From: Candidatus Thorarchaeota archaeon
GTDB lineage: Archaea; Asgardarchaeota; Thorarchaeia; Thorarchaeales; Thorarchaeaceae
Reading direction: 5' to 3'
Length of the DNA stretch: 30,627 nt
NCBI GenBank assembly: GCA_016933575.1
Contig: JAFGAR010000076.1
Span: 1 to 30,627 of the forward strand
A program made the position numbers and the translations under genes. This document shows, piece after piece, positions 25,427-30,627 of this stretch. How positions within the stretch are numbered: position 1 is the first letter of the stretch; every line of letters starts with the position of its first letter. The notes under the pieces were generated by a model. It saw only the letters and a list, made by a program, of their open reading frames with translations. It made no database searches and was not told the DNA's origin.

Positions 25427-26314
25427 TTGAGATTGGAGAAGTCATTATTATTTCGTGAAACTAATGGTCTGTCATCTCCACTCTCCTGCCTATCTGTTGA
25501 TAAAAAGGGGCGCTTTCTTGTCTGTGGTGATGCAGACGCAAACATCTATGTGGTAGACATCCGCACTGGAAAACGAAAACAAAAGATCGACGGCCATGAA
25601 GGTCCTATCACAGCAGCTTTTTTCGCAGGAGACAAAAACCACATAATCTCTGCAAGCTGGGATAAGACAACACGACTTTGGGACAGTAAGGGCTCCAAAG
25701 AACCAACAATTCTGAAACATGGAGCTGAGGTCAAATCACTCTCATTAGGACTAGATCAAGGCAAGGGTGCAGCTGGAGACCGAGATGGCGAGGTGAAGGT
25801 TTTTTCTTTGAGTAGCCTCAAATCCATGAGAAATTTGCAAGCGCATAGTACCGATGTTATTGGAATTTCCTTCATCAATGATGGTTCCAATCTTCTGACA
25901 ATGTCTTTGGATGGAGAATGCAAGATCTGGGATCTTAGTTCCTACGAAGTCATCGCAGAATTGCCTAGAATCAAAGATCGCATCAGGTCAGTTGCAACAA
26001 CGGTCGATAGTACGCGGTTGATTCTTGGTCTACATTGTGGTAAAATTCTATCAATCAATCTCGAAGAACCAACACACATTGATGAACTACTTGGTCACTC
26101 GGATGTAATAGCAGGACTCTCCACTGACTCGACCGGAGAGCGTCTAGCTTCGGGTAGTTGGGACCGGACGCTTCGTATCTGGTCTCTGAATAGTCTGAAG
26201 GTGATATCTTCTGGAACTCTACTTTCAGGCATTACAGCTGTTGAATGGGACCCAAAGGATGAGCTTGTCTATTCTGCTGACTTTTCGGGTTCGATTACAT
26301 CATGGGGGATTTAG
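25427..26314 (+). CDS. Stand-alone WD40-repeat protein (about 7 blades)
   Basis: GH...SASWDKTTRLWD, AH...SLDGECKIWD and GH...SGSWDRTLRIWS repeats. Confidence 0.92.
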   Translation: MRLEKSLLFRETNGLSSPLSCLSVDKKGRFLVCGDADANIYVVDIRTGKRKQKIDGHEGPITAAFFAGDKNHIISASWDKTTRLWDSKGSKEPTILKHGAEVKSLSLGLDQGKGAAGDRDGEVKVFSLSSLKSMRNLQAHSTDVIGISFINDGSNLLTMSLDGECKIWDLSSYEVIAELPRIKDRIRSVATTVDSTRLILGLHCGKILSINLEEPTHIDELLGHSDVIAGLSTDSTGERLASGSWDRTLRIWSLNSLKVISSGTLLSGITAVEWDPKDELVYSADFSGSITSWGI

Positions 26315-26925
26315 TCTAGATCCGAAGTATTTCTCTCAGGTAATGATGCTCTAATGTCTATACCCAAAAAACCCTCATTATTCCATGTGAGACGGACTCT
26401 TCCATACCTGCCATTCACTGGTGGTTTTCCATCTATTACAGAGCCTCGTGGTTCTCCTTTCAGAATCTCTGCGATCTGTGATGCAAAGCTATTCCTACTC
26501 CTTTTGTCATAAGGTATTGGAACTTCTGTTCGGTCTTGTAGTTTGAGTGTGATAGTTCTATCATCAATCTTGATGATTGGTTGAGACAGAATCATTCTTC
26601 CAAACTTGAAAAAGGGGATTTTATCCCTCATACTCCTGACATTCACAGCTAGCCTTCTATGAGTAGCAATCTCTGAAATGGCTGTCTTTATAACATTCTC
26701 AAGATAGACTGGTCTTTTGTCATACTTTTCAAAGAACTCGTCTTGGATAATCTCTTGAATTTTAACAAGACTTGTGAGATGATTCTTGACAATAATCTTA
26801 ATGACCCAGTTAGTGCCCATATGGTACCTCTCAAATTCTTCTCTAATGACTAGTTGTTTCTCCCTTGTTAGTGCGACACTCAGAAGTTTTAGGATTTCAA
26901 TGTCCCTCTTTGGCATTATGACCAC
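26311..26925 (-). CDS. TnpB/Cas12f-like N-terminal (REC+WED) region without RuvC
   Basis: LTREKQLVIREEFERYHMGTNW, TSLVKIQ..FFEKY..VYLENVIKTA, KIPFFK, IKIDDRTITL and GRVRLTW..GFLGIDI follow the TnpB N-terminal pattern; stops before any RuvC-I motif. Alternative ATG at 26916. Confidence 0.6.
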   Translation of the reverse strand: MVIMPKRDIEILKLLSVALTREKQLVIREEFERYHMGTNWVIKIIVKNHLTSLVKIQEIIQDEFFEKYDKRPVYLENVIKTAISEIATHRRLAVNVRSMRDKIPFFKFGRMILSQPIIKIDDRTITLKLQDRTEVPIPYDKRSRNSFASQIAEILKGEPRGSVIDGKPPVNGRYGRVRLTWNNEGFLGIDIRASLPERNTSDLD

Positions 26926-26977
26926 AATCCAATACTCACATTGTGGTTCTAATCAATCTAACTAATTAAAAAACATA

Positions 26978-28009
26978 CTAGACACGTCGAATAAGAAACT
27001 CCACCTCATTGATTATCCGGCTAATCTCGGAAGGTTGTATATCATAAGCTCCGTGCTCAACCAGTATATCATGAAAGAATGTTTCTTCAGTATCCCTTAG
27101 TCTGCCAATAAAATCTGTATCGTCAGAAATTGTATCTCCCTTGAGTGCAACTATCGCTTTTCCAAGGGTAGAAGTAGCCTCACGCATTTCAAGTACTGCT
27201 AATTCATAGTCGCTACCGTATGTGAGTCCTAGTGAACCATAATACTGTCGTTGAGCCTGCGCGAGTAATCTTGTTACCTGTGATAATTGACCATGGTCTT
27301 CTGTTTCAGCCAGATGTTTCTCTAAACGTTCCAACCATTCTCTCAAATCTTCAAGAACCTTGAGCAGTCTTGGTTCATCCATCCCCTTCAACTTGTATGT
27401 TCTCAAAAAAAGTTGATATGCTATCGGATTTAGCATACGGACCTCTGTGAGTACTTCAGCAGGCTTTAGCACTGTGAAGATGTCATTTGCCATCACTATT
27501 ACACGACCAAATTGGTAAAGGCCCTCACGCATTTCGTAGATGGCACTTGCAAAGTCATCACGACTTGCGTACGTTTTTGCTAAAGTGAGAGTGTTTAAGG
27601 CAAGTTCCTTCATCTTATTGATGACAGTATCTGACCATGAATATTCCATAGCTTTCTTTTGCCATCTCTTGAGAAGATCATCTGTGTCAAAAAGTATTCT
27701 TGATGATCTGAGTCTATTGACAGCCTCGGAGATTTTGAGTACATCCTCAGTCTTGTAGTTTAGAACATCCTCGATTTCCCCCACTGTCATGAAGGCCATA
27801 TCAATCAGAACTTCCTTGTGGGTAGACATGAGCCGAACAGGTGCTTCACCAGCATCCCAGATTATCCCAATATCCAAGTCTGAGTTTGCGGTAGCAGTCC
27901 CTTTCGCGAAGGATCCATATACGAAGATGCCTTTCACATTCTCATGATTCTTCCATTCTTTGACAGTATCATCAAGTACCATTTTGAAGCGTTTTTGAAT
28001 ATCCGTCAT
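26978..28009 (-). CDS. Pol-beta-type nucleotidyltransferase fused to two HEPN-like helical domains
   Basis: GIFVYGSFAKGTATANSDLDI; repeated DFASAIYEMRE / DYELAVLEMRE helices. Confidence 0.8.
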   Translation of the reverse strand: MTDIQKRFKMVLDDTVKEWKNHENVKGIFVYGSFAKGTATANSDLDIGIIWDAGEAPVRLMSTHKEVLIDMAFMTVGEIEDVLNYKTEDVLKISEAVNRLRSSRILFDTDDLLKRWQKKAMEYSWSDTVINKMKELALNTLTLAKTYASRDDFASAIYEMREGLYQFGRVIVMANDIFTVLKPAEVLTEVRMLNPIAYQLFLRTYKLKGMDEPRLLKVLEDLREWLERLEKHLAETEDHGQLSQVTRLLAQAQRQYYGSLGLTYGSDYELAVLEMREATSTLGKAIVALKGDTISDDTDFIGRLRDTEETFFHDILVEHGAYDIQPSEISRIINEVEFLIRRV

Positions 28010-28147: not shown

Positions 28148-28855
28148 ATGCCCCGGTCTGATGGAAGATCAAATGACGAGCTTAGACCAGTCGAATTCAG
28201 TAGAAACTATCTAACGCACCCTGAAGGATCTGTACTTGTCTGTATGGGCAAGACAAAAGTCATCTGTACTGCGACAGTAGAAGAGGGTGTTCCTAACTGG
28301 CTTAATGGAACTGGTCAAGGTTGGATTACTGCTGAGTATGGAATGCTTCCTCGATCAACAAATGAAAGAATGAATCGTTACAAGGTGAGTGGCAGAACCC
28401 AAGAGATTCAGAGACTCATTGGGCGATCTTTGAGAGCCGCTGTTGATATGCAAAAGATTGGAGACACGACCATAAAGATTGATTGTGATGTCATCCAGGC
28501 TGATGGTGGAACGAGAACCGCATCAATTACAGGGGCATATGTTGCCTTGTGCGATGCCTTAGATTTTATGATAAATCTCGATATGATTAACGAACGACCA
28601 TTACTTGGGAATGTTGCAGCGGTGAGTGTCGGAGTAATCAAAGGAGAGACTCTGCTGGATCTCTGTTATTTTGAAGACTCACAGGCTGATGTTGATATGA
28701 ACATCGTAATGCGCGGTAATGAGTTCGTCGAAGTACAGGGAACGGGAGAAGGTAGTACTTTCAAAAGAGATGTTTTAGATGAGATGCTTGACTTGGCCTC
28801 CAGAGGAATCTCTGAATTAATGGAGCTGCAGAATAAAGCTCTAGCTGTCAAGTAA
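28148..28855 (+). CDS. rph: Ribonuclease PH (bacterial type)
   Basis: [63 protein letters not shown] and EVQGTGE. Confidence 0.93.
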
Positions 28856-29079: not shown

Positions 29080-29414
29080 GAGCGCTCACTGAAAATTCAG
29101 TGTGGTGCTAAGTTAGGTCCGGAGTTCAGATTTCTTAATCAATGAACGAAGGCTCATCGGAACCAGGTCATGAGAATGGTACCATTTCCGATGAAGGACC
29201 GTCAATGCATAGGCTTTGGTGCTGTGCACTATTAGAAGCATGTGCAGTGATTGCAGAGGATGGAAGTACACTGACCGAGAAACGTAGGATATACACCTAA
29301 CGTTAGTACGAAGTTATTACGAAACTCCTTGGCATGATTGTTCATCAATCAATCATGTTCACAAATTAGTGGACAACAGGTAATACTGTGTCAACACATG
29401 ACTAGGTCCGCAAT
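29080..29414 (+). other. Structured 5' leader of the 23S pre-rRNA
   Basis: No ORF; stems CACTGAA/TTCAGTG (29087-29102), TCATCGGAA/TTCCGATGA (29154-29194) and CATGATTG/CAATCATG (29333-29357). Confidence 0.55.
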
Positions 29415-30627
29415 TTCGCTATACGGCCAGTGGTGGATGACTAGGTTGGCTAGCCGAAGAAGGGCGTGACAAGCAGCGAAATGCCGCGGGTAGACGCATG
29501 AAGTCTTTGAACCGCGGATACCCTAATGGGACTTCCTCACATGGGTTAATACCCCATGTGGATCCGGGGTCATTCTCGGATTGGGAACGCTCGGAATTGA
29601 AGCATCTTAGTACGGGCAGGAAAAGAAAACAACTGTGATTCCCTTAGTAACAGCGAGCGAAAGGGGAACAGGCCAAACCGAATCCCTATACGATGAGTAT
29701 AGGGGGATGTGGTGTAAGGGCCAAGAACAATTGCCTACACATACGAAACTGAAGTTGTCTGGAACGACATGGCATAGAGGGTGACACCCCCGTAGGTGCA
29801 AGATGTCGGCATGTTCATGGATCCAGAGTAGCGCGGGTTGGTTATCTCGCGTGAATGTCGCAAGTACAATTTGCGAAGCCTAAATACTAAGCCAAACCGA
29901 TAGTAAACTATGTAGCGCGAGCGAAAGTTGAAAAGTGCCGCGGAAGCGGGGTGAAAAGCACCTGAAACCACTGGTTTATACAAAGGATGCTGATTACAAG
30001 ATGAGATACTCGGGGAACGAAGCACGAGTGATTGTGTTGTAGGACCTGAGTGGATCGAATCAGCATCATCCGTCTCGAAACACGGGCCAGGGAGTTCATG
30101 GGCGTGGCGAGGATAAGGCGAAGAGCCGTAAACGAAGGGAAACCGATAAGCCCGCAGCTGCTTGCAGTGAGGGGCGGCGTGTGAAAGTGCGCGAAGTCAC
30201 TCCCATGACACGAGAAACCAGTCGATCTAGGCTTGGCCAGGGTGAAGCCGGGCGAAAGCTCGGTGGAGGCCCGAGTGGGTTATGACGTGCAACTCTCTCC
30301 TTTGAGCTGAGCGTAGGGGTAAAAGGCTTATCTAGACTGGTGATTGCTCGTTCTCTGCGAAGTTGGTCGCAGCCAAGCCTCGCTTGAGGTATCATGTGGT
30401 GTAGAGCACTTTCGGATGTGCCCGGGGGGCGTCAAGCCCTTCACCATCCTGAAAACTCCGAAGCTGCATGAACCGTAGACGGCGGGAGACGGGTGCCCGG
30501 GGTAAGCCCGGCAGGCCGAGATGGGGAGAACCGAGAGTATGGTTAAGGTCCCTAAGTACCAGATAAGTGCGGTGAAGAAGGGCGTCGAGAGCCCAAGACA
30601 GTCTGGGGGTGAGCTTAGAAGCAGCTA
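29415..30627 (+). rRNA. rrl: 23S rRNA, 5' part (archaeal type, truncated by window end)
   Basis: GGTGGATG..., GAATTGAAGCATCTTAGTA, AGTAACAGCGAGCGAA, CCGTCTCGAAACACGGGCCAGGGAG, GGTTAAGGTCCCTAA and GCTTAGAAGCAGC; 5' CCAGTGG pairs with CCACTGG near 29968. The 5' end is approximate. Confidence 0.96.

Follow-up and report, generated by a model that had tools for sequence, protein, structure and literature searches.

To our knowledge, the TnpB derivatives known to have been recruited by hosts (Cas12 effectors, Cas12k, TldR and sigma-associated TnpB) all retain the RuvC lobe, because RuvC holds the guide RNA. A long-conserved version without RuvC raises the question of whether the two other domains, WED and REC, can work alone. 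Here we describe gene X, our label for a RuvC-less TnpB-like protein gene at 26311..26925 on the minus strand of a 30,627-nt stretch of DNA from a Candidatus Thorarchaeota archaeon (assembly GCA_016933575.1, contig JAFGAR010000076.1, positions 1 to 30,627); this whole stretch is called the window below. X is very probably a domesticated TnpB half that has lost RuvC. Our explanation as a whole, to which we give a probability of about 0.5, is that X is the exapted, vertically inherited N-terminal half of a TnpB/Cas12f-type nuclease, with a guide-independent reader of a DNA motif as the preferred function.

The domains of TnpB have been assigned in the ISDra2 protein, where WED comprises residues 1-12 and 117-176, a seven-stranded barrel flanked by a helix (Nakagawa et al., PMC10097598). 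REC (residues 13-116) is inserted after strand 1, and RuvC starts at residue 185, with the catalytic D191 (PMC10097598). Only WED and REC read the duplex of the target-adjacent motif (TAM); the grip on the omega-RNA scaffold comes from WED and RuvC, with WED contacting its stem and pseudoknot, and the guide-target heteroduplex lies between REC and RuvC (PMC10097598). Compared with this arrangement, X was divided as follows.

26311..26925, minus strand: X open reading frame (ORF), intact; 204 aa from the GTG at 26925, stop TAA 26313-26311.
26878..26907, minus strand: WED strand 1 (residues 7-16), placed by the AlphaFold2 model and whole-length TnpB/Cas12f matches.
26617..26877, minus strand: REC-like helical insert (residues 17-103; helices 21-48, 53-67 and 72-95), placed by the AlphaFold2 model.
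26338..26616, minus strand: remaining WED barrel (residues 104-196), six strands and a short helical pair, placed by the AlphaFold2 model and its alignment to 8h1j_A.

The probable start of X is the in-frame ATG at 26916, three codons past the GTG, where homologues begin; this gives 201 aa, and the database entry P0002 corresponds to the 201-aa form with 100% identity. The stop codon shares 2 nt with that of a convergent WD40 gene (TAG 26312-26314), and the spacer to the upstream nucleotidyltransferase (NTase) gene is 61 nt counted from the ATG and 52 nt from the GTG. A preliminary description made from the letters of the window had given the intact 204-aa ORF, its stop overlapping that of an intact convergent WD40 gene and the 52 bp to the NTase, all of which the coordinates confirm. 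X is predicted to be basic (isoelectric point 9.8) and contains no cysteine, and invariant Arg/Lys are numerous among its relatives. R33-Y34...N39-W40 and P104-F-F-K107 are both present. An LTREKQ...RY...NW motif lies in the REC-like insert and is the source of the weak TIGR01765 and Cas12f2 matches of some relatives, and the invariant SQP, PxDKxSRN and YxRxRxT...G....D motifs are all within the remainder of the WED barrel. The TnpB N-terminal pattern that had been read from the letters (WED strand, REC helices, RY...NW, P-F-K) agrees with these motifs and with the modelled layout.

The AlphaFold2 model of X, built on 30 relatives (predicted local distance difference test score, pLDDT, 90.6; predicted template modelling score, pTM, 0.85), runs from strand 1 through three long helices (21-95) to six further strands with a short helical pair. 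When it was compared with the PDB using Foldseek, 24 matches were found at E<=0.001, every one of them Cas12f or TnpB (best E 5e-6). VIA, a structure search independent of Foldseek that covered 48,161 chains, returned only Cas12, TnpB and Fanzor in its best 30 rows (Z 12.8-6.9; 159-191 residues aligned over X 6-204), and its first unrelated row (Z 6.3) covered only 64 residues. TnpB clusters of the ESM Atlas matched X with a template modelling (TM) score of 0.70-0.75 and a root-mean-square deviation of 2.6-3.0, and residues 6-204 of the model align to residues 1-184 of ISDra2 TnpB (8h1j_A). The layout of X agrees with the published one, a WED oligonucleotide-binding (OB) barrel with the REC helices inserted between strands 1 and 2. 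Because the model shares the TnpB layout and stops at the WED/RuvC junction, X is, as modelled, WED plus REC and nothing else. The earlier placement of the X end where RuvC-I would begin fits well, as the model ends at residue 184 of 8h1j_A and RuvC starts at 185 (PMC10097598), and the AlphaFold and Foldseek comparison suggested at the time does give a match to TnpB/Cas12f, over WED and REC only.

X belongs to a family of proteins of similar length. A word-indexed search returned 146 relatives of 180-208 aa with 47-64% identity, many of them labelled Candidatus Thorarchaeota, and an exhaustive HMMER scan of 1.84 billion representative proteins returned 20 representatives at E<=0.001, none of which (0/20) has a RuvC or TNB domain. 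No longer relatives (421-2000 aa) were found, in a search that the tool itself rates as weak evidence. Two kinds of variant occur in the family: a ~235-aa group whose REC has an insertion, and a single 377-aa protein that ends in helical repeats. In the former subgroup (~232-240 aa; P0123-P0125, P0129, P0131 and P0132, from genera g3, g4, g7, g9 and g10), ~45 residues are inserted between REC helices 2 and 3. In the latter protein (P0136; L010:6001-7134), X is fused to ~4 C-terminal helical repeats of ~35 aa that carry an RPWEV... motif and have no Pfam match.

At the sequence level, neither X itself nor its alignment with relatives has a significant match in Pfam (E<=1 for X), NCBIfam or the PDB sequences, 30 of its relatives have none in Pfam at E<=10, and X does not reach the gathering thresholds of the TnpB N-terminal Pfam families PF12323 (HTH_OrfB_IS605), PF27234 (MJ0013) and PF27142 (Aq_aa04). 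When 29 relatives were scanned singly, weak profile matches were obtained with TIGR01765, the TnpB N-terminal domain, in four (best E 1e-4, below its cut-off) and with Cas12f2 in five. These are the two commonest weak families, and both match on the first strand and first helix.

The features that accompany TnpB elsewhere were sought in the protein and around the gene. X stops at the WED/RuvC junction and lacks the domain of the RuvC D-E-D triad, and the CCCC zinc finger of TNB is missing too, as no cysteine is present. A tblastn search of the window with the full-length TnpB of the same genome gave no match at E<=10, the window does not contain the core of the omega-RNA-like scaffold that goes with the resident TnpBs, and an Rfam scan of the window returned only the 23S rRNA gene. 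No omega-RNA is found at or after the 3' end of X, where a cis RNA has no room because the X stop overlaps the WD40 gene. X shows no sign of belonging to a mobile IS200/605/607 element (ends, tnpA, several copies), being single-copy and in fixed synteny. The preliminary description had seen no RuvC remnant or trace of an insertion sequence (IS), and the searches of the window leave that view unchanged.

The source genome has one copy of X. In a survey of 400 genomes of the phylum, X turned up in 79/85 members of a single GTDB family (16 genera), which NCBI records label Thorarchaeota, and in 0/315 other Asgard genomes. The six genomes of the family without X are also without an RNase PH match (6/6) and mostly without an NTase match (5/6), and as an rRNA gene borders the locus, its absence there probably reflects incomplete assembly and not loss. 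Selection was estimated from 31 orthologue pairs with dS between 0.05 and 2, for which the median ratio of nonsynonymous to synonymous substitution rates (dN/dS) was 0.11 for X, 0.075 for the NTase and 0.126 for the WD40 protein; 34 columns are invariant among 30 X sequences. Pairwise protein distances of X correlate with the NTase distances (r = 0.92) and the WD40 distances (r = 0.88), which is the pattern that vertical inheritance would give. The existence of 146 homologues in the 180-208-aa range, together with a median dN/dS of 0.11, shows the X ORF to be a real gene and not a product of chance. The purifying selection expressed in the same value indicates that X is domesticated and was not recently cut down from a full-length TnpB.

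Single-copy, same-length, syntenic orthologues under purifying selection, to which the preliminary description had looked for support, do exist (79/85 genomes, dN/dS 0.11), and neither of the outcomes that it had said would overturn it was found, as there is a structural match to TnpB and no relative is a full-length TnpB. Its description of X as a nuclease-free nucleic-acid-binding derivative stands for the loss of RuvC and for domestication, and its binding part is putative.

The neighbourhood of X in the window contains the following genes.

26978..28009, minus strand: NTase, 343 aa, directly 5' of X; MNT/KNTase-type catalytic domain, then a long helical C-terminal part.
28148..28855, plus strand: RNase PH, bacterial-type, divergent from the NTase; the 23S rRNA gene is next.
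29409..30627, plus strand: 23S rRNA gene, 5' part, from Rfam; cut by the window end.
25427..26314, plus strand: WD40 propeller gene, intact and convergent; its stop overlaps the X stop.

In all >40 genomes with compared coordinates, and in the distant members as well, the gene immediately 3' of the NTase is X, on the same strand. The order RNase PH (divergent), NTase, X is kept in all fetched loci, down to an X identity of 34%, except in L008, where a TnpB-like gene stands 5' of the NTase in place of RNase PH. A region of ~12 kb is syntenic within the X-bearing family. The sister family is represented by one genome, G311 (96% complete), which has an orthologue of the NTase (E 7e-82) with RNase PH and 23S nearby and does not have X; a small membrane protein and a profilin come after its NTase. 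Because that genome has the NTase, RNase PH and 23S but not X, X seems to have joined an already existing neighbourhood at the root of its family, the alternative being a loss in the sister lineage. In the same sister-family genome, the place of X (L035:4111-4497) is taken by a small protein with two transmembrane segments and by a profilin-like gene (Pfam Profilin, E 1.4e-5). In one metagenome-assembled genome (G328), contigs C82 and C67 each carry a complete RNase PH-NTase-X locus, the two being of different subtypes, probably because the bin is mixed and not because the locus was duplicated.

The NTase matches Pfam Polbeta and NTP_transf_2 and has the features of an MNT/KNTase-type enzyme, with GS-x(9-13)-DxD, a third carboxylate, and an NTase fold followed by a helical domain; its catalytic set (G32-S33, D44-x-D46, D70) is invariant. 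Its model (pLDDT 88.8), which carries an extra helical bundle, resembles kanamycin/ANT(4') nucleotidyltransferases (Foldseek E 1e-6), LinB and Hailong HalB. The helical part matches the helical domain of the kanamycin-nucleotidyltransferase type, and the HEPN identity that had been attached to this gene from its sequence is unsupported. RNase PH is a bacterial-type equivalog (353 bits). It was considered as a partner acquired together with X and rejected, since it is above the family cut-off in 192/400 Asgard genomes, a range far wider than that of X. In the window, L001, L004, L010 and the outgroup L035, a 23S rRNA gene that stands alone follows RNase PH directly and in the same direction, a linkage conserved across the order. 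The WD40 gene adjoins X in many genera, not all, and was rejected as an obligate partner because it is not beside X in L005, L006 and L010.

Two conserved sequences lie in the spacer before X.

26949..26962, minus strand: upstream box GTTAGATTGATTAG (core ATTGATTAG), 32 nt before the ATG; candidate promoter (B recognition element (BRE)/TATA-like) or operator.
26920..26925, minus strand: conserved (A/G)GTG block, -11 to -8 from the ATG; Shine-Dalgarno-like.

In 22 distinct NTase-X spacers the box GTTAGATTGATTAG is 80-100% conserved and the next 20 nt are variable. Across 15 genera, the core ATTGATTAG is exact in 9, has 1-2 changes in 5 and is missing in 1 (g8), and wherever present it is 30-39 nt before the ATG. 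In the loci with a spacer of 164 nt (L018) or 692 nt (L008), the box keeps with X and not with the NTase, suggesting that it is a promoter or operator of X's own. Shine-Dalgarno (SD) usage in the genome is GGAGG/AGGTG at -15..-10, which the (A/G)GTG block fits, and the distant member L010, which has no box, has a canonical TTTATAG in the box position. The simplest reading of the box and the block would be X's own promoter (BRE/TATA-like) and ribosome-binding site, and the unusually strict conservation of the box suggests that there is room for an operator. RNAalifold found no consensus structure in the NTase-X spacers, and when a genomic TATA consensus was sought in 1,966 ORF upstream regions, only the SD signal was recovered. 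The preliminary description had X perhaps co-transcribed with the NTase; since the box and the SD-like block move with X, staying at a fixed distance even with a 164- or 692-nt spacer, a promoter of its own is at least as likely.

The source genome also encodes three full-length TnpBs of 556-558 aa, on a contig other than that of X. Matches to PF07282 (TNB) in the genome are these three and one weak match elsewhere, and a conserved omega-RNA-like scaffold is present in five copies. In profile-profile comparisons with hhalign, X and the three resident TnpBs gave insignificant scores, with no detectable similarity. The three paralogues (G000 contig C64; L012, L013 and L014) are 64-67% identical and have a long acidic C-terminal tail and a ~110-nt conserved 3' scaffold; upstream of each, a 14-16-nt unit that differs among the copies is repeated at ~-118 and -25. 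In the NTase-X spacer of one relative (GCA_030592715.1 and a Logan contig; L008:4211-4680, L009:1-130), we observed a fragment that matches the tail (C-terminal residues 456-556) of the full-length Thorarchaeal TnpB and a complete omega-RNA-like scaffold (core GGGTGGAACACAGAAGTTTC) that ends ~40 nt before the X box. The GCA_030592715.1 relative also has a 720-aa TnpB-like gene upstream of the NTase, and in G346 the scaffold core GGGTGGAACACAGAAGTTTC lies upstream of the NTase (L021:169-188). The X locus seems to have been hit repeatedly by the resident-type TnpB IS family.

X cannot cut nucleic acid, because the RuvC nuclease and the TNB zinc finger are wholly lost, and it is probably a nuclease-free binder of nucleic acid. 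Because of the domain contacts of TnpB, removal of RuvC would spare the reading of a duplex motif and cripple canonical guide loading, and this contact pattern leads us therefore to favour a guide-independent binder of a DNA motif; that X is specifically a TAM-like reader is a tentative proposal, to which we give less than even odds. In the mechanism we propose, X would be a small, basic, stand-alone nucleic-acid-binding protein whose WED/REC cleft would read a short duplex-DNA motif without a guide. Its first candidate site would be the ATTGATTAG box before its own gene, and binding there could lead to autoregulation and perhaps to a very small regulon. We infer nucleic-acid binding, DNA rather than RNA as the ligand and the box as the binding site.

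Several points weigh against this proposal. Reading of a protospacer-adjacent motif (PAM) or TAM alone is usually weak and transient. The 13-mer of the box is not enriched in the genome (12 matches at <=1 mismatch vs 9 for the control) and its sole other exact copy lies within a coding sequence, for which reasons a large regulon was rejected. The box, missing in genus g8, could be a plain promoter element or the site of another regulator, and the TTGAT within it, which is the TAM of ISDra2, may be a coincidence. Strict adjacency to the NTase, beside RNase PH and the 23S rRNA gene, fits an RNA-related role equally well. The broader reading, in which the TAM-reading half was turned, family-wide, into either a guide-free sequence-specific DNA-binding regulator or the RNA-recognition subunit of the NTase, is less likely than not.

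The main rival, which we consider unlikely, is that X serves as an RNA-binding adaptor of the NTase, in which WED (an OB-fold) and REC would hold a structured RNA, such as the 3' end of a tRNA or rRNA, and present it to the enzyme, in an RNA 3'-end module that would include RNase PH. Even though X directly follows the NTase on the same strand in every one of the >40 genomes compared and in the distant members, the whole region of ~12 kb is syntenic throughout the X-bearing family, so this adjacency is weak evidence of coupling. The invariant active site of the NTase and the contacts of TnpB WED with the omega-RNA stem and pseudoknot (PMC10097598) would suit such a module, but by fold the NTase comes closest to enzymes that act on small molecules or oligonucleotides (KNTase, LinB, HalB) and not to RNA-tailing ones. 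The arrangement of RNase PH, pointing away from the NTase with the 23S rRNA gene after it, recurs in the outgroup; however, the sister-family genome G311 has the NTase orthologue and RNase PH without X. The evolutionary rates of X and the NTase are correlated, whereas a conserved box of its own precedes X, and insertions of 164-692 nt between the two genes are tolerated.

Next comes an improbable reading in which X would be a trans-guided binder, loading an omega-RNA-like guide from elsewhere (e.g., the resident TnpB elements) and binding complementary DNA without cutting, as TldR does. The genome does have three full-length TnpBs and five copies of the omega-RNA-like scaffold, but X has no detectable similarity to the resident proteins. 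In one species (L008/L009) a scaffold and a TnpB C-terminal fragment lie directly upstream of X, although the scaffold is beside X in this species only and resembles a decayed IS insertion. In TnpB, WED takes part in binding the scaffold, while RuvC does most of the holding of both the scaffold and the guide-target duplex (PMC10097598); X has lost RuvC, and known TldRs retain its fold. A cis RNA could not be accommodated, as the X stop overlaps the WD40 gene, and the 5' spacer has no conserved RNA fold and no Rfam match. The trans RNA raised in the preliminary description fares poorly for the same reasons: none was found, and RuvC, the main holder of scaffold and duplex in TnpB (PMC10097598), is missing from X.

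Less probable still is that X is a domesticated TnpB antagonist, which would compete for TAM sites or omega-RNA and damp the activity of IS200/605-type elements, much as a truncated transposase represses the element it came from. The genome does encode full-length TnpBs beside X, such elements have repeatedly hit the locus in relatives (L008, L021) and X keeps the TAM-reading domains, but X and the resident TnpBs have no detectable sequence similarity, which makes it doubtful that they share a TAM or RNA specificity, and long-term strict synteny with strong constraint across the family would be unusual for an arms-race factor. Hardly credible, finally, is that X is not derived from TnpB (a convergent OB-barrel with a helical insert) or is a decaying gene fragment: although neither Pfam nor the PDB sequences give a match to X itself, its profile scores against the resident TnpBs are insignificant and short TnpB N-terminal 'fragment' ORFs are common in databases, the full-length, topology-specific matches are exclusively to Cas12, TnpB and Fanzor, weak matches to TnpB N-terminal and Cas12f2 models recur, and the dN/dS of 0.11, the 34 columns that are invariant among 30 sequences and the occurrence of X in 79/85 genomes exclude decay.

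Compared with the TnpB of IS200/IS605 OMEGA systems (ISDra2, PDB 8H1J/8EXA), X has the same WED with REC after strand 1, in the order and size of residues 1-184, and an N-terminal motif of the LTxxxQ...RY...N[WY] type. Unlike TnpB, it is without RuvC, the TNB zinc finger, a 3' omega-RNA, IS ends and tnpA, and it is a single-copy, immobile core gene of one archaeal family. The best structural matches of X are to the miniature type V-F effector Cas12f (8DZJ, 9I8Y; Z 12.8), and in Cas12f dimers the second protomer is often resolved as its WED/REC part only, which is about the size of X; in contrast to Cas12f, X has no CRISPR array, RuvC or zinc-finger insert.

X also resembles short ORFs annotated as 'transposase (fragment)' (MJ0013 PF27234, Aq_aa04 PF27142 and SSO2105_N PF27229), which have 165-260 aa and the same predicted fold and form the nearest ESM Atlas clusters. 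X differs in that it has no match to PF27234, PF27142 or PF27229 at E<=10 and in its demonstrated conservation as a host gene. The ESM Atlas clusters near X carry names as fragments or N-terminal domains of full TnpBs. Predicted folds of WED and REC only, with 165-196 aa, occur in the ESM Atlas in Bacillota, Cyanobacteriota and Methanobacteriota.

Among host-adopted proteins, TldR and the exapted TnpBs associated with sigma factors, SpoIIE or ribbon-helix-helix (RHH) proteins are, in the parts of the survey considered here, like X in being immobilised, nuclease-free and kept by the host beside a fixed partner gene (PMC10691335). The exapted TnpBs described in those parts differ from X in being bacterial and in keeping the RuvC fold, mutated or trimmed, together with an adjacent guide RNA, and the same passages make no mention of a RuvC-less form (PMC10691335). 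Against TldR in particular, X lacks the inactive RuvC fold along with the whole C-terminal lobe, has an Asgard archaeal host and has no adjacent guide RNA gene that we could find, with no conserved RNA structure or RNA-family match around it. For the promoter binding and transcriptional repression that mark TldR, X offers a candidate site in the conserved box at 26949-26962. In the literature on TnpB in Asgard archaea and Thorarchaeota and on RuvC-less or domesticated TnpB we found no description of the X family, which is not proof that there is none.

Taken together, what is new here appears to be a demonstrably conserved, immobile and constrained N-terminal TnpB-like ORF and the conserved ATTGATTAG box that precedes it. 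The locus offers testable objects, namely a small, soluble-looking protein, a 9-nt conserved box and an adjacent enzyme. If WED and REC do work alone, X would represent a new minimal recognition module of ~190 aa, with possible engineering value, a new route from transposon protein to host factor and a lineage-specific marker gene for Thorarchaeaceae-like Asgard archaea. If the broader reading of a family-wide conversion is true, WED plus REC would be an autonomous, evolvable nucleic-acid-recognition module in a family close to the eukaryotic stem, and X would be the first TnpB exaptation to discard the RuvC lobe entirely.

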